Below, one piece after another: positions 38,663 through 63,981 of a stretch of 64,000 nucleotides of DNA (within the stretch, counting starts at the first letter, position 1; each line of letters opens with the position of its first letter). A model generated the notes under the pieces. It had not been told where the DNA came from and ran no database searches. It saw nothing but the letters and a program-made list of their open reading frames with translations. This stretch comes from an uncultured bacterium. Lineage in GTDB: Bacteria; Oederibacteriota; JAAXVQ01; JAUVAV01. Position numbers and translations under genes: made by a program. Location: the NCBI GenBank assembly GCA_963710755.1, contig CAVQBK010000003.1, forward strand, positions 821,211-885,210. Direction: 5' to 3'.

Positions 38663-38703
38663 CCCCTGGTTGACAGCAAAGGTTACCAATGGCTAAACGA
38701 CCA

Positions 38704-38738
38704 AGCGGCGTGCCACCATGGGGCACGCCGCTTTTTTT
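38704..38738 (+). terminator. Rho-independent terminator after the ABC ATPase gene
   Basis: 11-bp stem AGCGGCGTGCC / GGCACGCCGCT around a 7-nt loop, followed by TTTTTTT. Confidence 0.8.
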
Positions 38739-38862
38739 ATCCTGGGAATCCAACCGCCCAGCAACTTGCTGCGGGAATAGGTGTATTGACCAACAAGCTG
38801 TTTCCTCCGCCCCGAACAAAAGGACGCGCCGCCAACAAGCTGGCTTTTTACCCTGGCTGACG

Positions 38863-42496: not shown

Positions 42497-42581
42497 CCAT
42501 CTGTCAGCGCACCCTTGGTTCCATTAGGTCCTCTGTCCATGCCTCCGGGCTGGGATGAGAAAAACAAGGAGCAGTGGTAAT

Positions 42582-43325
42582 ATGTCACGTGCAATTAAAG
42601 GCGTCATCCTGGCCGGCGGGCTGGGCACCAGGTTAAAACCCCTGACCGACATTACCAACAAGCATCTACTGCCCGTATACGACCAGCCCATGATTTTTCA
42701 TCCTATCCAGAAAATGGTGGAAGCCGGGGTGCAGGATATCATGCTGGTCACGGGCGGTAATAATGCCGGCGATTTTTTGAGACTCCTCGGTGACGGCCGC
42801 AAGTTCGGAGTGCGGCGCCTGCAGTATGCCTATCAGAAAGGCGAAGGCGGCATTGCCGAAGCCCTGCACATGGCGGAGGCCTTCGCCGATGGCCAGCGCA
42901 TCATGGTGTTTTTGGGCGATAATGTGGTCAGCGAGTCATTGTGCCCTTATGTCAATAAATTCAAGCGCCAATCCCAGTCCGCCATGATTCTGCTTAAGGA
43001 AGTGGAAAATCCTTCAGCCTATGGCGTACCTGATTTCAAGGGTGGGCGCATTGAAAAAATCATCGAAAAACCGAAGGATCCATCGTCACCTTTTGCAGTC
43101 ATCGGCATTTACTTTTATGATGCCTCGGTTTTTAAAATTATCAAAACCCTGAAACCATCCCGCCGGGGTGAGCTGGAAATCACGGATGTGAACAATGCTT
43201 ATTTAAAACGCCGGCAGATGACCTATGAAGTGCTCAAACATCATTGGGCCGATGCCGGGGAATGCATTGACTCCTGGTTTCAGGCCAACCTCATGGCGCG
43301 GCAACAAAAGCTCAACTGTGACTAA
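42582..43325 (+). CDS. rmlA: Glucose-1-phosphate thymidylyltransferase, short form (RmlA/SpsI-like)
   Basis: 'IKGVILAGGLGTRLKPLTDITNKHLLPVYDQPMIFHPI' nucleotidyltransferase motif. ~247 aa, like Bacillus SpsI. Confidence 0.75.
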   Translation: MSRAIKGVILAGGLGTRLKPLTDITNKHLLPVYDQPMIFHPIQKMVEAGVQDIMLVTGGNNAGDFLRLLGDGRKFGVRRLQYAYQKGEGGIAEALHMAEAFADGQRIMVFLGDNVVSESLCPYVNKFKRQSQSAMILLKEVENPSAYGVPDFKGGRIEKIIEKPKDPSSPFAVIGIYFYDASVFKIIKTLKPSRRGELEITDVNNAYLKRRQMTYEVLKHHWADAGECIDSWFQANLMARQQKLNCD

Positions 43326-47498: not shown

Positions 47499-48458
47499 AT
47501 GAAACTTAAACTATTAATCACCGGTGTGGAAGGGTTTGCCGGGTCCTATTTGGCCCAGTGGGGGCTGGAGCAGGGAGCAGTGGTTCATGGCACGGTCTAT
47601 CCCCGGGCCTCTCTGCGAAATATCGAGGCCATCAAAGGGCTGCACACGCATCCTGTGGATATCCTGGAAGCCGACCGCTTGGCTGAGCTGGTTAAGGCTA
47701 TCAAGCCTGATTACATTTTCCATTTGGCCGGACAGAGCAATGTCTTTGCCAGTAACGAGCTGGCTGATCAGACACTCAAGACCAATGTGATGGGTAACTT
47801 CAATATTATAGAAGCGGTCAGAAAATCCGCCATAAAAGCAAGAGTGTTGATTGTGGGCTCGGCCAATGAGTATGGAAAAGTCCCTAAAAAAGAACATCCC
47901 ATCAATGAACAACAACCGCTCAATCCTGATAATCCCTATGCAGTGTCCAAAGTCTGCCAGGAATTAATGGGACACTATTATGCAAAGCAGCACAACCTTG
48001 ATATTGTTACGGTAAGACCGTTTAATTATATCGGGCCCAGGCAGGCCTTGGGGTTCGTGTGTTCTGATTTTGCCCATCAATTGGTGCAAATTGAAAGAAA
48101 AGAAAAGCCCCCTCTTATGGAAGTGGGTAATCTAAATGTGTATCGTGATTTTACGGATGTGCGCGATATGGTCAGAGGTTACTGGCTGGCTTTGGCCAAA
48201 GGGAAAAAAGGGGGCCTCTACAATCTCTGTTCAGGTCAGTATTACAGCATTAAGTCCCTGTTAAATTCCATGATCGCCATGACCGGATGCAAGGTTGAGA
48301 TCAAGATAAAAGCAGGCATGATCAGGTCCAATGAAAACCGCTGTTTTTACGGGGATTGCACTAAATTTCAGAATATCACCAAATGGAAAGCGCAAATTCC
48401 CATAGAAGAGACCTTGCGCGATATATTGGATTATTGGCGAGGAGTTAATAGGTCATAA
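47499..48458 (+). CDS. NAD-dependent sugar-nucleotide epimerase/reductase (Rmd-like, GDP-4-keto-6-deoxymannose reductase candidate)
   Basis: 'LLITGVEGFAGSYLAQW' Rossmann fold and catalytic 'NPYAVSKVCQE' (YxxxK), similar in layout to Rmd proteins. The 3' end carries repeat copy A. Confidence 0.65.
   Translation: MKLKLLITGVEGFAGSYLAQWGLEQGAVVHGTVYPRASLRNIEAIKGLHTHPVDILEADRLAELVKAIKPDYIFHLAGQSNVFASNELADQTLKTNVMGNFNIIEAVRKSAIKARVLIVGSANEYGKVPKKEHPINEQQPLNPDNPYAVSKVCQELMGHYYAKQHNLDIVTVRPFNYIGPRQALGFVCSDFAHQLVQIERKEKPPLMEVGNLNVYRDFTDVRDMVRGYWLALAKGKKGGLYNLCSGQYYSIKSLLNSMIAMTGCKVEIKIKAGMIRSNENRCFYGDCTKFQNITKWKAQIPIEETLRDILDYWRGVNRS
48344..48397 (+). repeat. Direct repeat copy A (54 bp; identical to 49148-49201)
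   Basis: Exact 54-bp match seen directly. This copy lies inside the 3' end of the Rmd-like gene. Confidence 0.9.
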
Positions 48459-48550
48459 CGAATTTCCCGGGAAGGCCCCTATTTCCCGTGGTTTTTCTCA
48501 ATTGCATTCTTTATAATAACAAGTAATGGTTACGAAAGAGGTGGTATCTC

Positions 48551-48775
48551 ATGACTGAAAATCTAAAGCATATCTTTTCAGAAGCGTTGGCATTGTCGCC
48601 CATGGAACGAGCTGAATTGGTGGAAAAAATTCTGACCAGTTTTGAGTTTCCCAACCGCAAGATGATAGATGAAGCCTGGATTACCGAAGTGGAGGAGCGT
48701 ATCGATAAGTTTGAAGAGGGCCGCATTGAGGCCAGACCTGCCCAGGATGTTTTCAAACAAATCGACAACATCTAA
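48551..48775 (+). CDS. Putative addiction-module antitoxin (small acidic antidote protein)
   Basis: 74 aa, '…ALALSPMERAELVEKIL…DEAWITEVEERIDKFEEG' antidote-type sequence. Strong AAAGAGGTGG ribosome-binding site. Immediately followed by a RelE/ParE-like gene. Confidence 0.6.
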   Translation: MTENLKHIFSEALALSPMERAELVEKILTSFEFPNRKMIDEAWITEVEERIDKFEEGRIEARPAQDVFKQIDNI

Positions 48776-48778
48776 ATA

Positions 48779-49081
48779 ATGAAGATCAAATTCCTTCAAC
48801 CAGCTGAGGATGAATTTATTGAGGCCGTCAATTATTACAACGGGCAAAGTGAGGGTCTTGGCTTTGAATTTGCGTTGGAAATAAGGCACACGCTTGAGAG
48901 GATCAATGGCCACCCGGAAGCCTGGACACAGCTTTCGAAACGTTCACGCCGCTGCCGCACCAATAGATTTCCTTATGGCGTTGTTTACCAGGCCAAAGGG
49001 GAAGAAATACTCATTATTGCTGTCATGCATCTTCATAAACACCCCCGGTCATGGAAAACGCGGGTCCGCAAGGTGACTTAA
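48779..49081 (+). CDS. RelE/ParE-family toxin
   Basis: 100 aa, '…FIEAVNYYNGQSEGLGFEFALEI…' and a C-terminal 'RFPYGVVYQAKGEEILIIAVMHLHKHP' β-sheet core typical of ParE/RelE. Overlaps the antitoxin stop codon. Confidence 0.65.
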   Translation: MKIKFLQPAEDEFIEAVNYYNGQSEGLGFEFALEIRHTLERINGHPEAWTQLSKRSRRCRTNRFPYGVVYQAKGEEILIIAVMHLHKHPRSWKTRVRKVT

Positions 49082-49145
49082 AAAAAGCCTTTGGGTCTAT
49101 CGCATTCTCTGCCCGGGGATGATGACCAGGCCCAACGCAACCCTT

Positions 49146-49259
49146 TATTTTTACGGGGATTGCACTAAATTTCAGAATATCACCAAATGGAAAGCGCAAA
49201 TACCTATGCAACAAACACTTAAGGATATTCTCGACTATTGGCGTGCTTTTAAAACCTAA
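49146..49259 (+). pseudogene. Orphan 3' fragment (last ~37 codons) of an Rmd-like gene, variant allele
   Basis: Translates in frame to 'YFYGDCTKFQNITKWKAQIPMQQTLKDILDYWRAFKT*', compared with the live gene tail 'CFYGDCTKFQNITKWKAQIPIEETLRDILDYWRGVNRS*'. It has no start codon and contains repeat copy B (49148-49201). Confidence 0.6.
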
Positions 49260-49328
49260 GTATTAAAACATTGGCTTAAAAGCACCTTTTGACAAAAAGA
49301 CAGGTTTTTGCCATAATTTAGCGCTTAA

Positions 49329-51056
<1,728 letters not shown>

Positions 51057-51061
51057 TAGAT

Positions 51062-52408
51062 ATGACTTATTTATTGTTTCTTTTAATTTGTGGGTTATTT
51101 TTTATTATCTCTTTTTTAAAGCCCGAATGGGGTTTATTGATTTTATTAGGGATAGTAATTTTTTTTCGGGAAGGATGGCATCCCGCTCTTTTACATGCCT
51201 GGACGTTTTATAATAATATTGAGATCGCCAATATACATGTTTTTGAAGTATTAATCCTAAGTTTGATAGGTATAACCCTATTTAAAAGAAATGTTTTAGA
51301 AAAAAAAACCTTATGGCTTCCGCCATTTACTTGGGTGGTAATATTATTCTTAAGTAATCTGGTCTTTTCAGCTTTTTATGGCTATGCGAATGGGGCCAGT
51401 CTCCGCCATGCAATGGGATATGGCGAGTGGCGGATTTTATTCTTAATGTTTTGTCTTTTTCTTATTATTCCCATGATTTTGGATAATCCTCAAAAACTGA
51501 AGAAATTTTTCACGGTTTTTTTTATCTTAGGCGTTATTCGCTGTCTGATTGGATGGCTCACTTATTTACAAGGGAAGAGCTTAATCCATCCTACCTTGAA
51601 CATACCCGTGGTATTTTGGGATTCAGGTGATAATTTATTGCTCTCGATTTTGATCGTTATAGCTGTAGTGCAATTACTATTAAATAAAAAATTGACTGCT
51701 GGGTTAATAGTAAAAGTAGGCTTTATTATACCTATGACCTTGGCCATCCTGCTTTCCTATAGGCGGACCTATTGGTTATTTTTGATTCTTTCTTTGACAG
51801 TAGTTTTCTTTTTAGTCAACATAAAAGGACGAATACGATACCTTGTGTTAATGTTTTTTGGTGGAAGTCTCATACTGGGCCTTTTGGCGATCAACTTTTC
51901 CCAGCCCGGGGTGGCAAGGTTGCTGGAAAGAGCCGAATCTTTTTTTACCCTTCGCGCTGACACCAATAGATTTCATATTTATGATTTATATGATGCCATG
52001 CAAACCATTAGCAAATTCCCGGTATTGGGGGTAGGCATGGGCAATGGGTTTAAAAGAATCAAAACATTGGAGTACGGGATCATGGGAGAACCCGTGACAA
52101 CTAATATCGTCCATAATACCTACTTACATGTTTGGTTGAAAATGGGATTGTTTGGATTGATGATTTTTATAATGTTCATCATTTTCTACTACCATTTTAT
52201 TTTGAAACGATTTAATAAAATTAAGGACCCTTTTAATAAAACTGTTATCATAAGCAGCTTGGCTGTTTTAACTGGACTTTTAGGTGTCTTCTTTTGGGGG
52301 CCTGGTTTGGTTGATAACACACGTAATATTTTTCTGATGTTTTCATTACTGGGTGCCGCCACAACGGTTATAGCCTATAACAAATCCAGGGATAATTCAT
52401 CCGGTTAG
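51062..52408 (+). CDS. O-antigen polymerase/ligase family protein (Wzy_C domain)
   Basis: ~11 transmembrane helices and a large periplasmic loop with '…NTYLHVWLKMGLFGL', a Wzy_C-like signature. AT-rich. Confidence 0.7.
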   Translation: MTYLLFLLICGLFFIISFLKPEWGLLILLGIVIFFREGWHPALLHAWTFYNNIEIANIHVFEVLILSLIGITLFKRNVLEKKTLWLPPFTWVVILFLSNLVFSAFYGYANGASLRHAMGYGEWRILFLMFCLFLIIPMILDNPQKLKKFFTVFFILGVIRCLIGWLTYLQGKSLIHPTLNIPVVFWDSGDNLLLSILIVIAVVQLLLNKKLTAGLIVKVGFIIPMTLAILLSYRRTYWLFLILSLTVVFFLVNIKGRIRYLVLMFFGGSLILGLLAINFSQPGVARLLERAESFFTLRADTNRFHIYDLYDAMQTISKFPVLGVGMGNGFKRIKTLEYGIMGEPVTTNIVHNTYLHVWLKMGLFGLMIFIMFIIFYYHFILKRFNKIKDPFNKTVIISSLAVLTGLLGVFFWGPGLVDNTRNIFLMFSLLGAATTVIAYNKSRDNSSG

Positions 52409-52572
52409 TTCTTATTGCGGAAAGACCATTTTAGCTTTAGTGACTGGCAATAGTTGTAATTTTAAACTTCTGTCGTCCCGGCGTGCCAGCATGATGAATT
52501 CGGCCGGGTGTCATTTTATGAAAGAGGTCTTTCCACAACAGAAACTACCTTAAAAAACAATGGTGAAAAATC

Positions 52573-53757
52573 ATGAGAGTACTGATGACTACTCATTTAA
52601 GTAGTTATGTGGGAACTTATTGGAGGCTTTGGTTTCTCGCGAGAGCTTTAGTAAAGCGCGGCCATGAGGTCACTGTAGTCTCCGTCTCACGTAAAAATAA
52701 ATGGACTGTTCGGAAAACGATTAAAGATGGAGTTATACTTTGGGAGGGGCCTAATTGGTTGCATAATTTACCCGGCAAGGGTACCGGACCTCTTGATATA
52801 TTATATCGGGCCAATCTAATAGCCAAGAACAACTATGATATTATTCATGCTTTTGAATACCATCCTAATATCAGGTTGCCGTTGGAATTTTCCCAATCCT
52901 GGAAAAAAACTATAGTCATTTCTGACTGGTGTGACTGGTACAGTCAGGGAGGGTTAGGTCCAAGATGGGGAAAATATCGCTTGCTTCAAAGGCTGGTGGC
53001 GCGCCTGGAAAACGGTATCCGTCTCAAGAGTCACGGCATAACTGTTATTTCACATTGTCTCTATGACCAGGTCAACAAGCAATTAGGAATACCCACAGAA
53101 AAAATACTCTATTTGCCGGGCGGGGCGCCGGCCGATTTGATCCGGCCCATGGATCAACATGAGGCCCGGTTAAAAAATGGATTGGGACCGGAGAAAATCA
53201 TTGGCTTTTTGGGCGCTTATCAAGCGGATTTGGATTTGGTTGTCGATGCGTTTAAATTGGTAATACAGGAACTGCCGCAATGTAAATTGTTGGTCATTGG
53301 AGAGGACAAGGGCAGCAGGCTGGATGTTTTAGAAAAGAAGATCCAGGCCTATGGTGTAAAGAATAAAATTATACGCACGGGATTTGTGGATTCACAGCGC
53401 CTGCCTTCCTTATTGGCCTGTGCTGATGTATTTGCCTTGCCGATCCGGAACACATTAAATAATCTTTCCCGCTGGCCGAATAAAATAGGAGAGTACCTGG
53501 CCGCAGGCAGACCGACAGTCGCTCATGCCGTTGGTGAAATGAAATATTTGTTTGAGAAATATTCCATAGGCCTTGCGGTGGAGCAGGATGACCGCGCCTA
53601 TGCCAATGCGTTGTTGGAGCTTTTAAAAAACCAGGCCAAAGCTCAACAATGTGGAGAACAAGCAAGAGAAGTGGCGGAACAGGTGCTTTCGTGGGACTGC
53701 CTGAGCACGGAATTGGAAGCTTTTTATCTAAGTATAAAAAAAGGGGCGGGGATGTAA
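52573..53757 (+). CDS. Family-4 glycosyltransferase (GT-B)
   Basis: GT4 C-terminal domain with 'RWPNKIGEYLAAGRPTVA' (E..G..K-like). Paralogous (~35-40% identity) to the CDS at 62806-63981. Confidence 0.7.
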   Translation: MRVLMTTHLSSYVGTYWRLWFLARALVKRGHEVTVVSVSRKNKWTVRKTIKDGVILWEGPNWLHNLPGKGTGPLDILYRANLIAKNNYDIIHAFEYHPNIRLPLEFSQSWKKTIVISDWCDWYSQGGLGPRWGKYRLLQRLVARLENGIRLKSHGITVISHCLYDQVNKQLGIPTEKILYLPGGAPADLIRPMDQHEARLKNGLGPEKIIGFLGAYQADLDLVVDAFKLVIQELPQCKLLVIGEDKGSRLDVLEKKIQAYGVKNKIIRTGFVDSQRLPSLLACADVFALPIRNTLNNLSRWPNKIGEYLAAGRPTVAHAVGEMKYLFEKYSIGLAVEQDDRAYANALLELLKNQAKAQQCGEQAREVAEQVLSWDCLSTELEAFYLSIKKGAGM

Positions 53758-53903
53758 TGCCCTGCTTGATATATTTTTTTGCATAACAATGGATTTGCAT
53801 AATTGTAACAGCATGCAGTGAAAAGGAATTATATTAAGCACACATAAGTTCATAACGTCATGGTTTGGGGAACGGATATGCTTAAGAAAGGCTTGAATGA
53901 GAA

Positions 53904-55070
53904 ATGGATTTTAAAGTATTAATGCTGCATAATCGCTACCTTATCAGGGGTGGAGAAGATGAATGCGTGGACGCTGAGCTGGGTTTACTTAATTCCCGCG
54001 GCTGCCATGCGGAATTACGGGAGATAAACAATAACCTGATAAGCGGACTTGGTAAGATACGCGCTGCCGGCAGAACACTTTGGTCATTTCCTGCGTTTAA
54101 CCAAGTTCGCCGGGAAATAAAAAAAAACGGGTTTAATTTGGTCCATGTCCACAATTTTTTCCCGCTGTGGTCGCCGTCGGTTTATTATGCGGCCGCCCTT
54201 GAGGGTGTACCCATAGTGCAGACATTGCACAATTACCGTTTGTTATGCCCCAACGCCCTTTTCTATCGTGAAAGCCGGATCTGCGAGGATTGCCCGGGTC
54301 ATAAGATACCCTGGCCGGGAATTCAGCACCGGTGCTACCGGAATAGTTTTATGGGCTCCGCCACGGTTGCAAGCATGATAGCGCTGCACCGATTCATCGG
54401 CACATGGAAACAAAAGGTAACTCTGTATATAGCCTTAAGTGAATTCTCACGTAAAAAATTTATAGAAAATGGTATCCCGGAAAAGAAAATAGTTGTAAAA
54501 CCAAACTTTATTTATCCCGATCCCGGTATCGGAGGTGGCAACGGAGATTATGCTATTTACGTTGGAAGATTATGCCCTGAAAAGGGGATACGCACTGTTT
54601 TGCAAGCTTGGGAAAAAATGAACGCAAAATTAAAGCTCTTTATTCTCGGGGATGGGCCACTGGCACAAGAGATGACCGAAATCGCCAATAAAGCGCAAAG
54701 CGTTGTCTATCTTGGCAGAAAATCATTGGATGAAGTGCAACAATTTATAGGTGAAGCCAAATTTCTAATATTTCCGTCGGAATTGTATGAAACTTTTGGC
54801 AGGGTGGCCATAGAAGCCTTTGCCAAAGGCACGCCTGTTTTGGCGGCAAATCTTGGAGCGGCGGCGGAAATTACCGAATCCGGACGCAACAGTCTTCATT
54901 TCGAGGCGGGGAATAGCGATGACTTAGCTGCAAAAGCAGATTGGTTGCTTAGTCACCCTTCCCAGCTTGCGGCGATGCGTCGGGAAGCCCGATTAACATA
55001 TGAGGGAAAATATACGGCGGACAAAAATCACCAATTATTACTTTCTATTTATGAAAAAGCTAGTCATTGA
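53904..55070 (+). CDS. Family-4 glycosyltransferase (GT-B)
   Basis: 'VGRLCPEKGI' and 'SELYETFGRVAIEAFAKGTPVLA' GT4 motifs. Confidence 0.8.
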   Translation: MDFKVLMLHNRYLIRGGEDECVDAELGLLNSRGCHAELREINNNLISGLGKIRAAGRTLWSFPAFNQVRREIKKNGFNLVHVHNFFPLWSPSVYYAAALEGVPIVQTLHNYRLLCPNALFYRESRICEDCPGHKIPWPGIQHRCYRNSFMGSATVASMIALHRFIGTWKQKVTLYIALSEFSRKKFIENGIPEKKIVVKPNFIYPDPGIGGGNGDYAIYVGRLCPEKGIRTVLQAWEKMNAKLKLFILGDGPLAQEMTEIANKAQSVVYLGRKSLDEVQQFIGEAKFLIFPSELYETFGRVAIEAFAKGTPVLAANLGAAAEITESGRNSLHFEAGNSDDLAAKADWLLSHPSQLAAMRREARLTYEGKYTADKNHQLLLSIYEKASH

Positions 55071-55284
55071 TTTTTTCAGGCCATCCTGGAGAATTTCTGT
55101 TAAAATTGTTCAAAGAAGAGGACTGTTTTACGATTATGCAGGATCCTTAGGTCCACGTATGTACACAGACTGACCGCGAATTGATTTAAAAATGTACAAA
55201 AAAATAGTTGGCAACTGATTGCTAACCGTCAGGAAGCCATTTATAAGGAATTATGTAAGCTTAGCTCATTAAAATAGAGGAAAA

Positions 55285-56664
55285 ATGTTTGCCTTTGCCA
55301 CCGGTAAGATAAAGAAATATTGGACCAGAATTACCGTTAAAGAAGAGGGGAAAAAAATATTTTCAAACGCTTCTTGGCTCCTGGCCGAAAAGATTATACG
55401 GCTTGCAGTAAGTTTTTTAGTCGGCATATGGATGGCCCGATATTTGGGTCCGACGCAATATGGGATTTTAAATTACGCCGCAGCTTGGATAGCGATCGCC
55501 ACTATTATCACTTCCTGGGGGTTGACGGACAGTTTGATTGTGCGCGATCTTGTCCGTGAACCCGGGCATAATAATGTAATCGTATTTACCTCGCTCGCCC
55601 TAAGATTATTAAGCAGTATTTTGCTCTACTCTTTGATGTTGCTCTTTCTGCAAAAATCAGCCGCTGCTCAGAAAACGTCGGTTATGATCATGATTTTAGG
55701 CATTGGCATGATTTTCCAATCCTTTGAAATATTCGATTTCTGGTTTCAATCACAGGTAAAATCCAAATATGTGGTCATAGCCAAAGCGTTGGCCTTTTTA
55801 ACCATGAATGTTCTCAAAGTAATTGCTATTTCACTTCGATGGCCTTTGGAAGTCTTTGGATGGTGTTTAACCGGCGAGTTAATAATAAGTGCAGGCGGGT
55901 ATATTTTCTTTTTTTACAGAATTGGCGGGGACTATACGCGAAAAAAAATGCAAATCAGTATTGATCGTGCATTGACATTGCTCAAACAATCATGGCCATT
56001 GTTAATGTCCGGTTTGGGCTACGCTATATATATGAAGACGGACCAGATTATGCTAGGCAATATGATCGGTGCACAGGCGGTGGGGTTATATTCTGTAGCC
56101 ACAAAGGTAACTGAAGTATGTTATTTTTTACCCATGGTTATTGTTTCTTCGGTTTTTCCAAATTTAATTAAGATTAAATTGCTGGATGCAAGTAAATATT
56201 ATGAACGCTTGCAAAAATTGTATGACGGGCTCACTGCACTGGCTTTGATGATTATCATTCCTACAACATTATTTTCGTATTATATTATTGTCAGCTTGTT
56301 TGGAGGCCATTACCAGGAGAGTGCCTACATTTTAGCCATACATATTTGGGGGTTGCTTTTTACTTTCAACCGGGTGGCGTTTGGTAAATTTTTAGTAATT
56401 GAAGGTTTGTTAAAATTTTCTTTTATCAGCAATGCAATAGGGGCGATTATCAACGTTGCGGCTAACCTTTATGCCATACCCCGCTGGCAAGGTCAAGGTG
56501 CGGCGGTGGCTACAATCATTTCATACTTCATCTCTTTGCACGTCGCTGCTTGGTTTTTCTCTAAAACGCGGAATAATGCCAATATGATTTTAAAAGCATT
56601 TTTTATCCCATTTCGGAGTTTGATCTATTTGCTGAGAGTAGGCAGGACACATGACGTTAAATGA
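55285..56664 (+). CDS. wzx: Polysaccharide flippase Wzx (MOP/PST family)
   Basis: ~14 transmembrane segments with a polysaccharide-biosynthesis-protein pattern. AGAGGA ribosome-binding site. Confidence 0.75.
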   Translation: MFAFATGKIKKYWTRITVKEEGKKIFSNASWLLAEKIIRLAVSFLVGIWMARYLGPTQYGILNYAAAWIAIATIITSWGLTDSLIVRDLVREPGHNNVIVFTSLALRLLSSILLYSLMLLFLQKSAAAQKTSVMIMILGIGMIFQSFEIFDFWFQSQVKSKYVVIAKALAFLTMNVLKVIAISLRWPLEVFGWCLTGELIISAGGYIFFFYRIGGDYTRKKMQISIDRALTLLKQSWPLLMSGLGYAIYMKTDQIMLGNMIGAQAVGLYSVATKVTEVCYFLPMVIVSSVFPNLIKIKLLDASKYYERLQKLYDGLTALALMIIIPTTLFSYYIIVSLFGGHYQESAYILAIHIWGLLFTFNRVAFGKFLVIEGLLKFSFISNAIGAIINVAANLYAIPRWQGQGAAVATIISYFISLHVAAWFFSKTRNNANMILKAFFIPFRSLIYLLRVGRTHDVK

Positions 56665-57781
56665 TCTTTCGAAGTTACAGAATTATTTACATTATATGCT
56701 TGCAGGTTACTTAAATGGGAATCAAATGAACAAGGGGAGTGAAAATAAACGTATTTGGGAAGAAACGATAACTTTAATTAATGATGGAAGAAAATCCCCC
56801 TTTTTTTCTTGCGTTGAGGAGCTTATCAGCGCTGGGTATGCAATATTTTTGCAAAAAATAGCTCATGTCTCGATGAAAAAGAAAAAACAAGTGGCAAAGT
56901 GTTTGCAGCCATTTGCCGACTGGAAACAAAAAATAAAACTATCAAGGCGACTAAAACCGATAGTTCTTCTTCAACGAAGACTTGAGAGAAGGAAAGAGAT
57001 TTTTCTATTTGCTGGTTTACATGGCAGTTATTCGACCCAGGATTTTATTTATGGCATGAGTGATGTGGACACGATATTAGTACTTAGAAAACAAACAGTA
57101 TTGGATCCAAAATTACTCAGGCAAGCCAGGAAGATAATTGGTCCTACTGTCAAATATTTATATAAAATCTGTATTTTTCAGCACCATGAGCACCATGTCA
57201 TTTCTGAGATTGATTTAGATTTCTACCCACCTCATTATTTTCCAATGGAGTTGATGGACTACACTACAGCTTTTATAGGCGACTCTTTAACTTTCTTGAA
57301 AAGATCGGATTATATTGAGGTCAAAGAAAGTCTGGTACAATGGAGAGAAAAATTTGGACGCGGAGACTTCAGCAGGATAATGCAAAAAGACAATTTATAT
57401 GACATGGTTCATTACAATCAAAGCATATTGTTTTTGCCCTGTCTTTGGCAGTCTCTTTCTCGGAAGAATTTGTATAAAAAGCATATTTTTAAAATATTTT
57501 ATAAAGCTTTCGATTCTAAGGAAACCGCTATTATGCGGACCGCTGAATCCCTGAGAAAACAAATCATCGCTGATCCCCGTTGGTATAGGCTGCTGGTTGA
57601 TGGATTAGCTCTCCTAAAGCGCCCAGGTCTATTCCCTAAGGTTTTTCGGATACTGACCAAATATTTATACGGGAATAAGAAACTTGTGTTTAAAAAAAAT
57701 ATTGCCCAGCTATCTTCAAACCAAGTTGTGACATTGATCGATAGCATATTGAAAGGAGCGAGTAACCATGCTGAAGGATGA
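56651..57781 (+). CDS. Nucleotidyltransferase-fold protein (Pol β-like minimal NTase motif), function unknown
   Basis: 'FAGLHGSYSTQDFIYGMSDVDTILVL' fits hG[GS]x9-13[DE]h[DE]h. Overlaps the wzx stop and the next gene's start. Very AT-rich. Confidence 0.45.
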   Translation: MTLNDLSKLQNYLHYMLAGYLNGNQMNKGSENKRIWEETITLINDGRKSPFFSCVEELISAGYAIFLQKIAHVSMKKKKQVAKCLQPFADWKQKIKLSRRLKPIVLLQRRLERRKEIFLFAGLHGSYSTQDFIYGMSDVDTILVLRKQTVLDPKLLRQARKIIGPTVKYLYKICIFQHHEHHVISEIDLDFYPPHYFPMELMDYTTAFIGDSLTFLKRSDYIEVKESLVQWREKFGRGDFSRIMQKDNLYDMVHYNQSILFLPCLWQSLSRKNLYKKHIFKIFYKAFDSKETAIMRTAESLRKQIIADPRWYRLLVDGLALLKRPGLFPKVFRILTKYLYGNKKLVFKKNIAQLSSNQVVTLIDSILKGASNHAEG

Positions 57782-58865
57782 CACGAAATACTTTCCGCGC
57801 GAAGCATATCCCCAAGCTATTTTTGAATACTTAAAGATGTTAAAACCTCATTATACTGATATAAGCGCCATTTACCAGTTTGGTGACGTTGGACAACCTG
57901 GATTATCAGATATTGACTTAATTGTAGTCATGAAAAATAATTGCCATCAGCAAAAATATACCGATTATACAGTGCCTCGCCAAAATGACTCTTTAACTTA
58001 TTTAATTTGCCATGATCCCTTGTTTGTAAATGAAGAAATATTCCGAAAAATTAAATATGGGTATCCGATATTTAAATTATCTTGGCTCTGGGGAAAGGGT
58101 ATTGATTATGAGCAAGTGTTACATGATGAAAATAAGGAAATCAATATTTTAAATTTACTCAATACTTTTTTAACCAAAGTTCCGTCTGATTATATAAGAT
58201 ATATATATAGAGAAGAGCAGGTCTCCTGCCGTCTTGCAATTGCAATGTTAAACTCCTTTAAACATATGTATGCCTTGTTATTTAGCATTACTGGTGAACG
58301 TGATAGTGGATCGGAAAATTATATTGAAAGACTTGATGGATTAAGAAAAGGGTGGTTTCAAGATAATTCCTTAGAAAAACTTGAACAGTTGAAGGAAATG
58401 ATCAAAGAATCTTTGTATGTCATTGCTGATTTGGTGAAAAAAACTGATATCATGGTTAGGCATCAATATAATCTTACGCCCAAAGGAGACTTGATCTTTA
58501 AAAACCGCACTTTTTATTATATATTTAAAAAAGAATGGGAAAAAGAGATTTTTATAAAAGAAATTGAGAGTCGAGGAACAATATATTTTCCATATTCTTT
58601 TTCACTATTTTTACAGCATGCTTCCAGGCAAAAAAACGTCTATGGACAATATTGCAAACGTATACTAAAGCCGCACAACCATAAGATAACAGGGATTCAA
58701 GAGAACAGTGTTATTAATGAGCACAATATGATTAAAGATAAATATATCACTTTTATGAAAAACTGCTTTATGTATCCGCCACTGCCATACATCGGCATGG
58801 GCTACCAAGCGTTGGGTAGCAGAATTTATAATAAAGTAAAAATATTTCTAAAAAGAGAAAGATGA
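57768..58865 (+). CDS. Second nucleotidyltransferase-fold-like protein, function unknown
   Basis: 'QFGDVGQPGLSDIDLIVVM' is a KNTase-like SDIDL motif. Coupled to both flanking genes. Confidence 0.4.
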   Translation: MLKDDTKYFPREAYPQAIFEYLKMLKPHYTDISAIYQFGDVGQPGLSDIDLIVVMKNNCHQQKYTDYTVPRQNDSLTYLICHDPLFVNEEIFRKIKYGYPIFKLSWLWGKGIDYEQVLHDENKEINILNLLNTFLTKVPSDYIRYIYREEQVSCRLAIAMLNSFKHMYALLFSITGERDSGSENYIERLDGLRKGWFQDNSLEKLEQLKEMIKESLYVIADLVKKTDIMVRHQYNLTPKGDLIFKNRTFYYIFKKEWEKEIFIKEIESRGTIYFPYSFSLFLQHASRQKNVYGQYCKRILKPHNHKITGIQENSVINEHNMIKDKYITFMKNCFMYPPLPYIGMGYQALGSRIYNKVKIFLKRER

Positions 58866-60025
58866 TGTTAAAAGAATATATCCAAAACAACTTGCACCGA
58901 TGGATATGCTGGATTGGAACACTGCTTAACCATCTGATCGGGCATGGCAGACAAAGGAAATGTCTCTTAATTCTTCGTACGGATGGTATTGGTGACTTTG
59001 TCTTGTTTGGCCCCATGATAGCGACATTGGCAGAGAGATATCCTGGTCACGAGTTATTGCTTTTGTTGCAGGCTCGTGTGGCGGAATTAGCTGACGCCCA
59101 TCCGGATATTTCTAAACTTATTACTTTTAACTATTCGAAATACCGCAAAAATATTTTCTATCGCTTGAAAACATTATGGTACATCCGCCAAAAAAAAGTC
59201 GCCATTTGTATTAATCCGATGGTTTCGAGAGATTGGATAGGCGATGAAATAGTGCTCTGGTCAAATGCGGGGGAGAAAATCGGGTGGGATACAATATTCC
59301 CCTCTATGAGCTTGAAACAGAAAAAGCAAGGCGATCATTATTATACTCGACTAATTAAAACAAATTTGATGCCATATGCTCATGAGCTAAATAGTAATAA
59401 ATTATTTTTACATGATACTTGTCAGCAGGATGCGGATTTTCGGATGGCAATATGGCCTGCACCTCAGCACATAAAAAATGTCGCCACCCGATGGAAAGAT
59501 GCAAGACTAGAGAACTCCAAGGTGATTTGTTTGTCAATAGGGGCCCTGGCTTCCTATCGCAAGTGGGCTATTGAAAACTACTTTGCATTAATTGAACGGA
59601 TACGTAACTATTCGCAAGACCATAAATTTATAATAATTGGAGAAACTGATAAAACTATTATAGATAAAATAGTCGCCTATCAAAAAAGAGAACCGGACAT
59701 TTTTAACTGGTGCGGGACCACAGCTTTGGGAGAATTATCTGCTATCTTTAAACATTGCCAAATGGTCATTGGCAATGAATCCGGGCCAATGCATATAGCA
59801 GTTGCAGTAAATGTACCCACGGTATGTATTTTGGGCGGAGGGCATTACGGGAGATTCATGCCTTATGGGAACGAAGATATTCATAAATACGTCATTAAAA
59901 AAATGGATTGTTTTCAATGCAATTGGAAATGTAAATATAATAGCGTACGCTGTATTGCGGAAATCCCAATAGCGGCGGTCTATGCTGAAGTAATAAAACT
60001 GTTGGCACAACTCGAGTTGAAATAA
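58862..60025 (+). CDS. Family-9 glycosyltransferase (ADP-heptose:LPS heptosyltransferase family)
   Basis: N-terminal 'LLILRTDGIGDFVLFGPMIATLAERYP' and C-terminal 'VIGNESGPMHIAVAVNVPTVCILGG' match the two GT9 signature regions. Confidence 0.75.
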   Translation: MMLKEYIQNNLHRWICWIGTLLNHLIGHGRQRKCLLILRTDGIGDFVLFGPMIATLAERYPGHELLLLLQARVAELADAHPDISKLITFNYSKYRKNIFYRLKTLWYIRQKKVAICINPMVSRDWIGDEIVLWSNAGEKIGWDTIFPSMSLKQKKQGDHYYTRLIKTNLMPYAHELNSNKLFLHDTCQQDADFRMAIWPAPQHIKNVATRWKDARLENSKVICLSIGALASYRKWAIENYFALIERIRNYSQDHKFIIIGETDKTIIDKIVAYQKREPDIFNWCGTTALGELSAIFKHCQMVIGNESGPMHIAVAVNVPTVCILGGGHYGRFMPYGNEDIHKYVIKKMDCFQCNWKCKYNSVRCIAEIPIAAVYAEVIKLLAQLELK

Positions 60026-60076
60026 AACCTTTTTTGTCCACATATTTCTATATAAAGTGACCGGGCTGGTAAACGT

Positions 60077-61975
60077 ATGCAAAAAGGATTAATTATACTC
60101 CCCATTCTTGTTTGGACTTGTCTATTTGTGTGGCAACGTCAGAAGGCCGCGTGGAGGGAGTCCTTACTGCAAGCCACCCTTGTGTGGAGCATACTCTTAA
60201 CCCTGATGGTGGAAATTACGAGTTTGGTTAACTTAATTAGGTGGTGGGCATGGGGTATAATCTGGGGTCTTATATTGACCTTTCTAATAGGAAAACTTTT
60301 CCGGGATAAAGCAAATATATTGAGCCTTTTTAAATGGCCGCATCAATTCAACAAAATGGAAATATTGTTAATATCATGTTTGATATTTTATTTGAGTCTG
60401 TTGTTGTTGGTAGCGGCGACAGCCGTTCCCAATACCTGGGATTCCATGACCTATCATTTACCTCGAATTATGCATTGGCTGCATGATCACAGCGTGACCA
60501 ATTATCCCACTAATATACTGCGCCAATTGTACCAGTCCCCTTGGGCTGAATATGCCGTCATGAATTGGATGCTGCTAAGCGGTAATGACACCTTTGCCAA
60601 TCTTGTGCAGTGGACCGCGATGGTTGGGAGTTTGATCGGGGGTTCCTTGATCGCCAAAGAAATGGGGTTAAATAGAGCTGGTCAGCTTGTCACGGCTGTG
60701 GTGATTGTTACCATTCCCATGGGCATGATGCAGGCCACGAGCACACAAAATGATTACGTCACGGCCTTATGGCTGGTGATCGCCATGTATTATGCCATTG
60801 TTTTAACGGAGAAATTTAACTGGTCAAAAATGATATGGTTTTCCGCTGCCGTCGGGCTTGCTTTGCTTACAAAAGGGACTGCATATATTTATAGTTTGCC
60901 GATATTGGTTTATATGGGAATCATTTGGGCCAGGCAATTAAGACATAAGGCTTGGCGTCCAATACTTGTAACGGGATCTGTTATTTTACTTTTGAATGGC
61001 TTTTATTACGCCAGAAATCTGGCTTTGTTTCATTCGCCACTGGGAAGCAAAAGTATTAGTCAAATGTACAAAAATGCTGATTACTATCCCAATGCAATAG
61101 CTGCCAATATTATTAAAAATGCAGCATTGCATCTTCAGTTTACAGACAAAAAATTGGATAAAGACATTGAAAAAAGTGTCAAACGAATCTGCGACAATTT
61201 GGGGGTATCTTGTGATGACCCCAAATATACTTGGCATAATACGGTTTTTAAACTATATTCAGTTCGGAAGTGGGATGAAGACTCGGCAGGAAATACTTAT
61301 CATTTCCTCTTGAGCCTTGTTGCAGTGCTGATATTTATCGTTATGCTTCTAAAAATAAAAATGCCCTTTGTGACGACCTCTTACATTTGTATTGTTGCCG
61401 TGATGTTTATTTTGTTTTGTAGTTATTTAAAATGGCAACCATGGCATTCACGGCTTCACTTGCCAATATTTGTGCTTTTGGTTCCATTTATGGTAAAAAT
61501 GTTTTCAAAAATAAAAGTTCCCGGTAGTCTGTACATCATCGCCTCCTTCTTATTGCTGACATCCCTTCCTGGACTATTTAAGAGTCATTCCCGACCATTG
61601 ATTGGAGAACAATCTATATTTCATCAATCACGATATAGGCAATACTTTAACGCTAATCCTAAATATTATGACGAATTCAAAAAGATTGATCAGATATTGA
61701 CACGGCATTCCTGGAAACGAATAGGATTAATTTGGTCGGAAGACACTTGGGAATATCCGCTGTGGCTAAATCAAAATGGCGTCTTCAGTGGGAGAACAAT
61801 TACTCATATAGCTGTTGAAAATGAGTCTGGAAAATATGCTTCAAATAATAACTCGTCAGAAGTAGTTGACTGCATAATTATAGCGAAGAAGGCGCTTAAT
61901 AAGTGGGATAAAACAGATTTTAAAAATAAATATCATGAGATGTTAAGTTTGGATGATTTTCGAATATTTTATTAA
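60077..61975 (+). CDS. Polytopic membrane glycosyltransferase of GT-C type (ArnT/PMT-like, polyprenyl-phosphate-sugar dependent), inferred
   Basis: ~12 transmembrane helices, a first extracytoplasmic loop with an acidic motif (…NTWDSMTYHLPR…), and a ~130-aa C-terminal soluble domain. Neighbours a DPM1-like GT2 gene. Confidence 0.5.
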   Translation: MQKGLIILPILVWTCLFVWQRQKAAWRESLLQATLVWSILLTLMVEITSLVNLIRWWAWGIIWGLILTFLIGKLFRDKANILSLFKWPHQFNKMEILLISCLIFYLSLLLLVAATAVPNTWDSMTYHLPRIMHWLHDHSVTNYPTNILRQLYQSPWAEYAVMNWMLLSGNDTFANLVQWTAMVGSLIGGSLIAKEMGLNRAGQLVTAVVIVTIPMGMMQATSTQNDYVTALWLVIAMYYAIVLTEKFNWSKMIWFSAAVGLALLTKGTAYIYSLPILVYMGIIWARQLRHKAWRPILVTGSVILLLNGFYYARNLALFHSPLGSKSISQMYKNADYYPNAIAANIIKNAALHLQFTDKKLDKDIEKSVKRICDNLGVSCDDPKYTWHNTVFKLYSVRKWDEDSAGNTYHFLLSLVAVLIFIVMLLKIKMPFVTTSYICIVAVMFILFCSYLKWQPWHSRLHLPIFVLLVPFMVKMFSKIKVPGSLYIIASFLLLTSLPGLFKSHSRPLIGEQSIFHQSRYRQYFNANPKYYDEFKKIDQILTRHSWKRIGLIWSEDTWEYPLWLNQNGVFSGRTITHIAVENESGKYASNNNSSEVVDCIIIAKKALNKWDKTDFKNKYHEMLSLDDFRIFY

Positions 61976-62067
61976 AAATATTAAACCAAGCGATATATCA
62001 TTGAATGAGAAGTAAATATTGTTGTTGTCTTTTTAAGACTACTCTTATTTTGAGCAAGGATTGTCCA

Positions 62068-62769
62068 ATGAATACTGATAAGCTTCCTTCAATTTCAGTA
62101 ATAATACCAGCGTATAATGAGGAAAAAACAATTGCTGAAATTATTGCTAAGGTTCGAGAAATACAAATTGAAAAAGAAATTATCGTTGTTAATGATGGAT
62201 CTAAAGATAATACGGAGAAAATTCTAGAGGGGCTTGAGGGCCCGGATATGAAAATCGTCAACCTACCCGGCAATTCAGGGAAGGGAGGCGCCATCAGGGA
62301 AGGCTTTAAACATGCCCAAAATAAAATAGTCGTGATTCAAGATGCAGATTTGGAATACGATCCTCAAGATTATTATGAGTTGTTAACCCCTTTTGTTACC
62401 GACAACGCTGATGTCGTTTACGGCAGCCGGTTTTTAACCACTAAGACCAGACGGTTGCATTATTTTTGGCATTATGTAGCTAATAATCTTTTAACCCTGG
62501 CTTGTAATATGGTTAGCAATCTCAATATGACGGACATGGAAACATGCTATAAATTATTTAAACGTGAACATATTCAAAGCTTAAAACTGATGGAAAAGAA
62601 ATTTGGTATAGAGCCCGAAATGACTATTAAACTTGCCAAGAAAAAGCTTAAATTCTACGAAGTGGGCATCTCCTACCATGGCCGATCTTATGAAGATGGG
62701 AAAAAAATCGGAGCCAAAGATGCTTTTCGCGCTTTTTACTGTATTTTAAAATATGGGTTATTTAGTTGA
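62068..62769 (+). CDS. Family-2 glycosyltransferase, DPM1/ArnC-like (paralog of 33794-34525)
   Basis: 'ISVIIPAYNEE', 'NDGSKDNT', 'IQDADLEYDP', C-terminal 'YCILKYGLF'. The upstream part of the 6-frame ORF (from 62005) is a non-homologous leader. Confidence 0.8.
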   Translation: MNTDKLPSISVIIPAYNEEKTIAEIIAKVREIQIEKEIIVVNDGSKDNTEKILEGLEGPDMKIVNLPGNSGKGGAIREGFKHAQNKIVVIQDADLEYDPQDYYELLTPFVTDNADVVYGSRFLTTKTRRLHYFWHYVANNLLTLACNMVSNLNMTDMETCYKLFKREHIQSLKLMEKKFGIEPEMTIKLAKKKLKFYEVGISYHGRSYEDGKKIGAKDAFRAFYCILKYGLFS

Positions 62770-62805
62770 TGAAAAAGCTTGATGGAGACTGAGACAGGCA
62801 GAGTC

Positions 62806-63981
62806 ATGAAAATCTTAATGCTTAATCATAATGTTATTTGGCGGTCTACATTTTTTCGCTGCTATCATTTTGCCCGCTATTTGGTGAAAAAAGGCCATGA
62901 AGTGACCATTTATACCATCCATCCTAAAAATCGGAAAAGTATTGAAGAAATCAATCTCCAAGGGGTACGGGTAGTGCAATTTCCCGATTTATTTTGGGGC
63001 ATGGCCAGGTCAGGATGGGATTTTTGGGATACATGGGTGCGGCTACGCTATTTAAAAAATGAAAAATACGACCTGGTCCATGCTTTTGACTCCAGACCTG
63101 TGGTGATTCACCCTGCCCTGGACTTGAAAAAAAGAGGCATCCCTCTGGTCATGGACTGGGCAGATTGGTGGGGACGGGGCGGGGTGATTGAAGAACGGTC
63201 CAATAAATTAATTAAACATCTTTTTGGTCCCATTGAAACCTGGTACGAGGAACACTTTCGCACCCAGGCTATGGCTACCACCGTCATTTCCACAGCCTTG
63301 CGCGAGCGCGCCATTAAACTGGGTGTGCCTGAAAAAAGTATTGTCAAAATTACAGGCGGGGCGGACGTGGAAAATTTCCAACCTCGTGATAAAAATGATT
63401 GCCGGAAAAAATTAGGTATCTCGCAAGAGGCCAAGGTAGTAGGCTTCATGGGCTTTGTTCACTATGATTTGGATCTGGCCTTGAAGGCCTTTGCGGAAAT
63501 TTATCGAAAAGATCAAACCGCCAAATTAATCTTGGTGGGTAAGCCTTCACCAATGACCAAGGTTATTGCCCAGCAGGAAGGCTGTGAGAAAGGCATCTTG
63601 GAATACGGGATCCTTCCCTATGAAGAAATATCTGACTATATGGGCGCAGCCGATGTGTTTTTGCTGCCCTTTGCGAATAAACAGGCCAATATAGGCCGCT
63701 GGCCCAACAAGGTGGGTGATTATATGGCCATGGCAAGGCCGATTGTGTCCAGCCCGATAGGGGAAATGGTGCATTTGTTTAAGTCGGAAGATATCGGCCT
63801 CTTGGCAGACCCAACACCAAAAGACTTCGCAGACGCTGCGATGAACTTAATGGCAGACAGAAACTTGAGCCAGCGGTTGGGGGAGCAAGCCAGAAAAGCC
63901 GCCGAGGAGCGGTATTCGTGGGAGCATTTGACCGAAGTGTTGGAAGTTTCCTATTCCAATAACATGGAAAATTTCACTTGA
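62806..63981 (+). CDS. Family-4 glycosyltransferase (paralog of 52573-53757)
   Basis: Co-linear similarity to the CDS at 52573-53757 ('DWADWWGRGG', 'RWPNKVGDYMAMARPIV'). The ORF may start at 62779. Confidence 0.7.
   Translation: MKILMLNHNVIWRSTFFRCYHFARYLVKKGHEVTIYTIHPKNRKSIEEINLQGVRVVQFPDLFWGMARSGWDFWDTWVRLRYLKNEKYDLVHAFDSRPVVIHPALDLKKRGIPLVMDWADWWGRGGVIEERSNKLIKHLFGPIETWYEEHFRTQAMATTVISTALRERAIKLGVPEKSIVKITGGADVENFQPRDKNDCRKKLGISQEAKVVGFMGFVHYDLDLALKAFAEIYRKDQTAKLILVGKPSPMTKVIAQQEGCEKGILEYGILPYEEISDYMGAADVFLLPFANKQANIGRWPNKVGDYMAMARPIVSSPIGEMVHLFKSEDIGLLADPTPKDFADAAMNLMADRNLSQRLGEQARKAAEERYSWEHLTEVLEVSYSNNMENFT

Follow-up and report, generated by a model that had tools for sequence, protein, structure and literature searches.

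The window analysed here is a 64,000-nt stretch of DNA from an uncultured bacterium. It carries a polysaccharide locus of the Wzx/Wzy type, in which two adjoining reading frames, termed ORF A and ORF B, lie between a wzx-type flippase gene and a GT9 glycosyltransferase gene. The features discussed below are as follows.

55285..56664, + strand: wzx-type flippase gene (Pfam Polysacc_synt, E 3.5e-23), given as context
56651..57781, + strand: ORF A, 376 aa, belonging to the 'A' family of ANT-like Pol-beta nucleotidyltransferases, within which it is divergent
57023..57070, + strand: nucleotidyltransferase (NTase) signature of A, G125-S126 ... S137-D138-x-D140 (HGSYSTQDFIYGMSDVD), its columns invariant in 61 A-family sequences
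57182..57187, + strand: A H178-H179, of which H179 is invariant in the 'A' family and H178 93% conserved
57768..58865, + strand: ORF B, 365 aa, a 'B'-family member with an NTase core and a HEPN-like helical domain
57804..58094, + strand: NTase core of B, residues 13-109 (helix, strand, strand, helix, strand, strand; DSSP of the model)
57882..57917, + strand: signature of B, G39 ... P44-G45-x-S47-D48-x-D50 (GDVGQPGLSDID), conserved in the 'B' family
58011..58013, + strand: B H82, 95% conserved, immediately preceding strand beta3
58134..58859, + strand: C-terminal helical domain of B, with R155, R193 and W196 conserved
58862..60025, + strand: GT9 glycosyltransferase gene (Pfam Glyco_transf_9, E 2.9e-17)

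The last 14 nt of wzx overlap the start of A, and the stop codon of B overlaps the start of the GT9 gene (ATGA). The initial annotation had described A and B as translationally coupled tandem reading frames that overlap with one another as well as with wzx and GT9 on either side; the arrangement is confirmed at 56651-57781 and 57768-58865, and coupling of A and B is supported. Its placing of the pair in the most AT-rich part of the window is also correct, the GC content of the window being lowest there. No hydrophobic segment was found in ORF A. A conventional NTP_transferase is also encoded in the window, at 42555-43325.

Searches with A and B as single sequences (Pfam, NCBIfam, PADLOC, PHROGs and phmmer against PDB) returned nothing useful, a word-indexed protein search returned only the sequences themselves, and an indexed protein search with an alignment of A+B and fusions gave no match. 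Nor did we find a Pfam or NCBIfam model, an informative source name or a paper covering the A/B family. Loci were surveyed by scanning genomes with a degenerate DNA motif derived from the B signature, which returned only true family members. The 'B' family comprises 564 representatives at 50% identity, and A/B carriers occur in Bacteroidota, Planctomycetota, Desulfobacterota/Syntrophales, Chloroflexota, Actinomycetota, Spirochaetota, Proteobacteria, Patescibacteria and three archaeal lineages. Cultured carriers include Winogradskyella tangerina M1309 (locus L038), Psychroserpens luteolus XSD401 (L105) and Hanstruepera neustonica JCM19743 (L119). Of the 98 informative loci among the matches listed, which span more than 15 bacterial phyla as well as archaea, 91 have A upstream of B or the two fused. 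In natural A-B fusions, the N-terminal half is homologous to ORF A (phmmer E 1e-10 to 1e-21) and collinear with it. A and B are anciently diverged paralogues, and A-then-B is a fixed module.

Both proteins are Pol-beta-fold NTases of Pfam clan CL0260, and the fold assigned to them in the initial annotation is borne out by the conserved motifs, the model of B and the profile of A. The alpha-beta-beta-alpha-beta core of the clan is present, together with its hG[GS] and [DE]h[DE]h motifs. Pfam Polbeta is matched by 55 of 61 A members and 9 of 61 B members, and NTP_transf_2 by 50 and 15 of 61, respectively, while the A-family profile matches KNTase (E 4.4e-5), MNT (6.8e-5), DrrA (6e-4) and AAD(9) (9e-4). 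The structure model of B used for fold comparison has a pLDDT of 93, an AF2 model from the single sequence one of 43 only. The core of the former, with secondary structure by DSSP of H13-31, E32-38, E50-55, H74-79, E85-88 and E104-109, is matched structurally by the minimal NTases 2rff and MntA. Within the B signature G39, G45, S47, D48 and D50 are invariant (61 sequences), and window B has G-D in place of the G-S common to many members. The A signature has its counterparts in AadA at Ser36, Ser46, Asp47 and Asp49 (PMC4631478).

Clan CL0260 has a third conserved carboxylate on a neighbouring strand; the 61 B sequences have no conserved acid there, and His is the near-invariant residue at that position. 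The third acidic residue that the initial annotation proposed to look for downstream is replaced by His in both proteins (A H178/H179, B H82). A H178-H179 lies 38-39 residues past D140, where the catalytic base falls in ANT enzymes, and H179 aligns with B H82 in hhalign. Where the ANT enzymes have a Glu/Asp base (AadA Glu87, LinB Glu89, KNTase Glu145), A and B have none, and His stands at the spacing-equivalent position. A H178/H179 would then be the counterpart of AadA Glu87 (PMC4631478), an equivalence drawn from spacing and secondary structure.

Window A departs from its family at seven positions of at least 87% conservation, including Lys to Val253 and Asp to Cys174, the latter replacing a 98%-conserved Asp five residues before the His. 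Together with the G-D of window B, these deviations could mean that one or both of A and B are non-catalytic and serve to organise a glycosyltransferase complex, as a pseudo-enzyme scaffold or a subunit for substrate binding, and the TPR and glycosyltransferase fusions described below are compatible with a scaffold. However, the metal-binding SDxD, the G(S) and the His are invariant across phyla in both families, both window proteins included, which is unexpected for a pure scaffold, and we give this explanation a small probability.

The nearest relatives of the B model and the A profile are the aminoglycoside/lincosamide O-nucleotidyltransferases ANT(3'')(9), ANT(4') and LinB. Like ANT/AadA, AAD(9), ANT(4')/KNTase and LinB, A and B combine an NTase core with a helical bundle, in the ANT-type order of an NTase domain followed by a bundle that forms the substrate cleft. 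In contrast to the ANT enzymes, with which they share 12-18% identity, A and B are about 100 residues longer; they are two diverged paralogues rather than a homodimer or monomer; and they lie in polysaccharide loci, fused to glycosyltransferases or modifiers, rather than on resistance elements. No Pfam ANT-family or KNTase_C match was obtained for either protein. The genomic context argues against a role for A and B in antibiotic resistance.

Among the matches listed, the A/B pair has a polysaccharide context in 119 of 119 loci, and its recurrent neighbours are all polysaccharide genes. The glycan-related role put forward in the initial annotation is strongly favoured for this reason. The genes lie amid variable glycosyltransferase and modifier genes, away from conserved export and regulation genes, and a methyl-, sulfo- or glycosyl-transferase gene is often found next to A or B or in the 'modifier slot' between them. 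Fusion partners of the module include GT9, GT4 (as TPR-GT4), GT2, methyltransferase, sulfotransferase and deacetylase domains. We rejected the PMT_2 proteins of the window and of locus L101 as orthologues, there being no detectable similarity, and a kinase-like assignment of the 304-aa 'c28' protein, whose gene can lie between A and B, a by-eye reading with no Pfam or PDB support.

It had also been suggested that the pair might be a nucleotide-signalling or defence system hitch-hiking in the variable glycan locus; such a system would be CD-NTase/CBASS-like or else a toxin-antitoxin of the MNT-HEPN kind. This suggestion is largely refuted by context, and we consider it extremely improbable. Low regional GC would agree with it, as would HalB and HEPN/MNT among the fold matches, but every sequence match is below threshold (PF20697 NTase-conflict, E 0.014 for B; PADLOC cyclase, E 0.028 for A and nothing for B; CdnD, E 0.063). 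The proposed likeness to cGAS/DncV-type CD-NTases did not hold: none of 122 members matches SMODS or Mab-21 at E<0.1, and we treat the CdnD, PADLOC and CdnC (Foldseek E 2.9) matches as noise. Neither a SMODS/CD-NTase profile match with adjacent effector or Cap genes nor any recurrent effector, Cap, HEPN-toxin-type or other defence-type neighbour was seen in the 119 loci among the matches listed. Of 2.9 million viral contigs just 2 carry the motif, a tblastn search of 72,556 plasmids gave no match, and translational coupling joins A and B to their wzx and GT9 neighbours. HEPN toxins do match a sub-domain of the C-terminal helical domain of B. However, MNT-HEPN (MntA-HepT) systems and minimal nucleotidyltransferases have a separate small MNT and HEPN, whereas A and B each hold both in one chain, are three times larger (365-376 against about 100-140 aa) and have no toxin-antitoxin context; in B, the conserved R155 and H166 lie eleven residues apart (R155-x10-H166), in place of the Rx4-6H RNase motif of HEPN. 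We reject A/B as a CD-NTase/CBASS or toxin-antitoxin pair on account of its polysaccharide context.

Improbable, too, is regulatory AMPylation, in which A/B, in the manner of DrrA or GlnE, would modify a protein of the assembly machinery with a nucleotide instead of acting on the glycan. DrrA is matched by the A profile (E 6e-4), SidM_N is matched by 16 of 61 A members, and HEPN partners are AMPylated by MNT-type NTases, MNT and HEPN both being fold matches here. The DrrA matches are, however, limited to the 27-29 residues of the G-S...DxD motif, while the whole-protein neighbours are small-molecule ANTs, and A and B lie among, and are fused to, variable glycosyltransferases and modifiers rather than lying beside conserved export or regulation genes.

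The sole established precedent for an NTase fold acting on polysaccharides is LicD/fukutin/FKRP (PF04991, PF06828), which forms phosphodiesters on sugars and is encoded in glycan loci (PMC2794190, PMC11666461). The initial annotation had likened A and B to this group, a membership we reject on both sequence and fold: none of 122 members matches PF04991 or PF06828 at E<0.1, and no FKRP or LicD structure is among the PDB fold matches listed. A and B differ further in their HEPN-like helical domain and in being paired paralogues. No genes for CDP-alcohol supply (LicA/LicC, TarI/TarJ, TagD) were seen among the 24 largest neighbour clusters (8-kb loci, singletons partly annotated). The same chemistry could nonetheless have arisen in another NTase lineage, transferring a phospho-alcohol or sugar-1-phosphate from a CDP-alcohol or NDP-sugar to the glycan with release of NMP, and so decorating it without a nucleotide. 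We know of no nucleotide-bearing polysaccharide, which such chemistry would account for. LicD, FKRP and Mnn4 show the NTase fold to be capable of it on glycans (PMC2794190, PMC11666461), and the context of A/B is exclusively polysaccharide; even so, we rate this explanation as unlikely.

GT9 is a likely functional partner of A/B. Single A-B-GT9 polypeptides exist (P0081, P0128), and GT9 follows five of the six fused AB genes, the sixth (L023) ending at the edge of its locus. GT9 enzymes use ADP-heptose as donor. A/B might then be an unconventional nucleotidylyltransferase for sugar-1-phosphate or another phosphate, making the NDP- or ADP-linked donor for the adjacent GT9 or GT4. The coupling of A-B-GT9 in the window and its fusion elsewhere would fit such a role, as would the binding of small sugar-like substrates in the ANT interdomain cleft (PMC4631478) and a weak fold match to the CDP-DAG synthase Tam41 (E 0.4). 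However, only about 8-9 of the 119 loci among the matches listed contain GT9, the fusions to TPR-GT4, sulfotransferase, methyltransferase and deacetylase suggest action at the level of the polymer, and the window already has its conventional NTP_transferase (42555-43325). We think precursor activation distinctly unlikely.

A/B loci also recall the terminators WbdD and Klebsiella O7 ORF6, in which a phosphoryl-transfer enzyme is combined with a SAM methyltransferase. In four wzm-wzt loci (L031, L063, L100, L108), wzt is directly followed by A or AB, and fusion to glycosyltransferases via long linkers or TPR is a further point in common. The O7 kinase has a fold like that of antibiotic-modifying enzymes, recognisable from structure alone (PMC3482155, PMC11231755). 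Despite this likeness, A/B has an NTase fold and WbdD/O7 a protein-kinase/APH fold, kinase and methyltransferase folds being absent from A and B; no coiled-coil ruler, as in WbdD-type terminators of ABC-transporter loci with Wzt_C, is evident in A or B themselves; and most A/B loci, the window's included, are of the Wzx/Wzy type, in contrast to the ABC-transporter-dependent WbdD/O7. Capping is not known from Wzx/Wzy-type loci. The resemblance is one of analogy, positional and compositional, in 4-7 ABC-type loci; A/B as the only candidate terminator there was rejected, as methyltransferases are present also.

The reading we favour, if tentatively and at a little less than even confidence, is that A and B form a heteromeric enzyme of the cytoplasm, which attaches a phosphodiester-linked group, in the simplest case NMP from NTP, to the hydroxyl of a sugar in the nascent glycan. 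The coupled genes would supply A and B in fixed stoichiometry, and the two would work jointly in the cytoplasm within the surrounding glycan assembly line, here with the coupled GT9; a heterodimer corresponding to the KNTase homodimer is their most probable form. The SDxD aspartates would bind Mg/Mn and the nucleotide donor, whose phosphates would be held by basic residues of the helical domain. The His, replacing the ANT catalytic Glu, may activate a sugar hydroxyl, either on the lipid-linked repeat unit or on the growing chain, for attack on the donor phosphate. The product would be a sugar-O-phosphodiester, and O-nucleotidylylation would be the simplest case, with NMP transferred from NTP and PPi released. 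The fold, the paralogy, the obligatory pairing and fusion, the exclusively polysaccharide context and the conservation of the catalytic motifs are established here; the donor, the acceptor, the heterodimer and the part played by the His are inferred.

To our knowledge, O-nucleotidylylation of sugars has so far been seen only in antibiotic resistance enzymes. That A/B performs it on a nascent bacterial or archaeal polysaccharide, yielding a new cap or decoration, or an activated intermediate for a methyl-, sulfo- or glycosyl-transferase, is a specific proposal that we regard as rather doubtful. If true, the A/B family would be the long-sought housekeeping relative and source of the ANT/Lnu resistance enzymes, and in ABC-transporter loci it would be an NTase-based third type of terminator, beside the kinase/methyltransferase and Kdo-transferase types. 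Testable features are the fixed order of the two paralogues, an active site with His in place of Glu, and the 'modifier slot' flanked by A and B. Within surface-polysaccharide loci, A and B occupy the variable part that defines the antigen. Their reaction, once known, would account for an unassigned step of numerous O-antigen, capsule and EPS pathways, might bring to light a new substituent or capping mechanism of glycans, and would give a physiological context to the fold of the aminoglycoside and lincosamide nucleotidyltransferases.

Two overlapping ORFs, A and B, lie within the glycan locus of the window:

56651..57781, + strand: ORF A, 376 aa
57768..58865, + strand: ORF B, 365 aa

At the junctions, as read from the nucleotide sequence, A begins 14 nt ahead of the upstream gene's stop, B starts 14 nt ahead of the stop of A with AAAGGAG 9 nt upstream of its start, and the gene downstream of B starts in an ATGA overlap with the B stop. 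The upstream gene encodes a Wzx-type flippase (Polysacc_synt, E 3.5e-23) and the downstream gene a GT9 glycosyltransferase (E 2.9e-17); the 49-64 kb region also codes for a sugar epimerase, a Wzy_C protein, three GT4s, a PMT_2 GT-C protein and a small GT2, with nucleotide-sugar genes farther upstream. Across the locus (48000-63000) GC falls from 0.50-0.56 to 0.33-0.45, which suggests a horizontally exchanged, hypervariable cassette, and the lowest-GC bin of the window (58-59 kb, 0.326) falls inside B. ORF calls, DNA junctions and GC bins thus confirm the two ORFs, their overlaps with each other and with their neighbours, and the low-GC position reported in the initial annotation. Also in the window, a 566-aa ORF (49356-51056) has a GDP-sugar epimerase/reductase domain at residues 9-303, to which some 250 C-terminal residues lacking any Pfam match are fused; in these, by eye, a charged coiled-coil-like stretch sits between two hydrophobic segments in a Wzz/PCP-like topology. 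A 758-aa ORF (38689-40965), between an ABC ATPase gene and a UDP-glucose dehydrogenase gene, has no Pfam match at E 1e-5.

Single-sequence searching gave no Pfam match for A, and only sub-threshold matches to two Pol-beta models for B; direct searches of NCBIfam, PDB, PADLOC and PHROGs returned nothing usable for either, and both are singletons at 90% identity. An exhaustive HMMER scan with B collected 564 representatives at E<=1e-3, of which 185 reach E<=1e-10; most are 360-420 aa long. In an alignment of 61 sequences, G39, G45, S47, D48 and D50 are invariant and H82, R155 and R193 nearly so. Scanning genomes with a degenerate DNA pattern for Y-Q-x-G-x4-P-G-h-S-D-h-D gave at least 119 loci, with a true family ORF in all 119 of those listed. 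From genomic loci we collected 60 A-family sequences, whose profile matches KNTase (E 4.4e-5), MNT (6.8e-5), DrrA (6e-4) and AAD(9) (9e-4); when 61 A members were tested against Pfam, 55 matched Polbeta and 50 matched NTP_transf_2.

In the AlphaFold2 model of B (61-sequence alignment; pLDDT 92.9, pTM 0.91), residues 13-109 form an alpha-beta-beta-alpha-beta-beta core, after which comes a long helical domain. The model's first Foldseek match in the PDB is ANT(4')/kanamycin nucleotidyltransferase (E 5e-5, probability 1.0), one of the aminoglycoside/lincosamide O-nucleotidyltransferases (ANTs), followed by AadA, minimal NTases and MntA; a viral fold library returned generic NTases only. The resemblance to LicD/fukutin or CD-NTase enzymes proposed earlier was not borne out: LicD, SMODS and Mab-21 were matched by 0/61 A members and by none of the B family in Pfam, the listed PDB fold matches contain no FKRP or LicD structure, and CD-NTases appear there at noise level only (CdnC, E 2.9). 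We consider it unlikely that A and B act in the manner of LicD, taking a phospho-substituent off a CDP- or NDP-donor and transferring it.

Compared profile to profile, the A and B halves align with 86% probability (E 5e-6), SDxD on SDxD and A H179 on B H82; on these sequence grounds, A and B are ancient paralogues. In nine long B-family matches the B-like domain is directly preceded by an A-like one (E 1e-10 to 1e-21 when searched by phmmer with A), the concatenated window proteins align collinearly with such natural fusions, and one homologue, P0081, continues into a GT9 domain, reproducing the window gene order within one polypeptide. Of 98 informative loci among the matches listed, 91 have A either fused to B or encoded upstream of it on that strand (52 adjacent, mostly with 4-nt overlaps; 33 with one or two inserted genes; 6 fused). 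Distances between A sequences track those between B sequences (r 0.82) far more closely than they do those of a flanking GT4 (about 0.33). GT9 follows five of the six fused genes, while the sixth reaches the locus edge. The order AB, GT9, PMT_2 (GT-C) occurs both in the window (58862-62769) and in a Spirochaetales MAG (L101:2656-7907), the two PMT_2 proteins having no detectable pairwise similarity (E 0.08). A Chloroflexia MAG locus (L025, 1-7500) has four to five tandem B-like ORFs and no A, and in seven others (L020, L059, L072, L087, L088, L110, L112) no A precedes B; some B-like proteins may thus work alone.

Hosts among the matches listed are Bacteroidota, Planctomycetota, Syntrophales/Desulfobacterota, Chloroflexota, Actinomycetota, Nitrospirota, Verrucomicrobiota, Spirochaetota, Acidobacteriota, Alpha- and Gammaproteobacteria and Patescibacteria, together with the archaeal Methanobacteriota, Micrarchaeota and Nanoarchaeota. 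The recurrent neighbours in these matches are polysaccharide genes only: GT4 (81 loci), AsnB-like amidotransferase (29), SAM methyltransferases, DegT, GT2, sulfotransferases, hexapeptide and GNAT acetyltransferases, GT9, Wzm/Wzt, Wzz-kinase and Wza. The homologues of the at least 119 loci thus reside in polysaccharide loci. Given these neighbours, the occurrence of the B motif in just 2 among the 2.9 million contigs of a viral collection, and the absence of any tblastn match among 72,556 plasmids, the earlier suggestion of a hitch-hiking defence or signalling pair is unsupported. The two IMG/VR contigs (L121 and L122; 75-125 kb, one sample) carry true B homologues, L122 also with A upstream.

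In AadA, Ser36, Ser46, Asp47 and Asp49 bind ATP/Mg, Arg192 and Lys205 of the helical domain bind ATP, and the catalytic base is Glu87 on beta3 (Glu89 in LinB) (PMC4631478). A has S126, S137, D138 and D140, H178/H179 38-39 residues further, an invariant K276 and a near-invariant R302; in B, S47, D48 and D50 are followed 32 residues further by H82, at the edge of beta3, and R155 and R193 are present as well. This pattern of Ser, Asp, His and basic residues indicates that the family reproduces the ANT site with His in place of the catalytic carboxylate, an equivalence drawn from spacing and secondary structure; where a third acid was anticipated, none is conserved in B. Neither protein has hydrophobic segments. 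Window B retains every residue at least 80% conserved in the family. Window A retains all invariant residues and differs at seven positions at least 87% conserved (D174C, P175I, G180E, K253V, S279I, W292T, W305I), and may be a catalytically weakened or specialised subunit. We regard a scaffold role for the pair as very unlikely.

Where a gene is inserted between A and B, it usually encodes, among the matches listed, a methyltransferase or sulfotransferase. A SAM methyltransferase or sulfotransferase-like gene occupies this slot in about 23 loci of L002-L120 (e.g. L004, L019, L022, L038, L051), several recognised solely by eye from a GxxKxGTT/S P-loop, and a GINT1_N-domain protein does so in a few. 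In three loci (L012:1271-2185, L057:1998-2912, L094:5304-6224) a methyltransferase and a 304-aa protein, c28, lie exactly between A and B. The latter has no sequence match in Pfam or PDB; its conserved H-Y-D-x-x-T-x-N and S-I-L-D-x-E-x-G..G-D resemble, by eye, APH/choline-kinase catalytic motifs. If c28 is a kinase, a WbdD-like methyltransferase-kinase pair would be nested within the A/B module.

Fusion partners of the module include TPR-GT4, TPR-sulfotransferase-GT4, GT9-GT2, methyltransferases and polysaccharide deacetylase. A Rhodothermales MAG (L016:721-5622) encodes a 1634-aa TPR, sulfotransferase, GT4 and A-domain protein with a separate B next; TPR-GT4-A occurs in L021, L065 and L095, the last with B fused to a methyltransferase. 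That the module is joined to polymer-level enzymes argues for a reaction on the glycan itself; production of an NDP/ADP-sugar for use by the neighbouring glycosyltransferase appears rather improbable, and protein AMPylation very much so. Seven of the loci among the matches listed are of the ABC-transporter type. Where complete, their Wzt measures 402-452 aa, a length implying an extension at the C terminus, which is Wzt_C in the representative; in four, A or AB comes immediately after wzt, and three have a methyltransferase as well. This arrangement offers an analogy with WbdD-type chain terminators, but since the window is of the Wzx/Wzy type, the role it suggests cannot be the general one.

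Our conclusion, held with high confidence, is that A and B work together, probably as a heterodimer, and make up an ANT-like nucleotidyltransferase dedicated to the assembly of polysaccharide. By the simplest transfer of ANT chemistry, a sugar hydroxyl of a lipid-linked glycan would attack the NTP alpha-phosphate, yielding an O-nucleotidylated sugar. Our searches turned up no family model that covers these proteins, no paper on them and no informative source name. The family constitutes a widespread new variant among NTase-fold glycan-locus enzymes with ANT-like architecture, unusual in its obligatory paired paralogues, its His for the catalytic Glu and the recurrent modifier slot between its genes.
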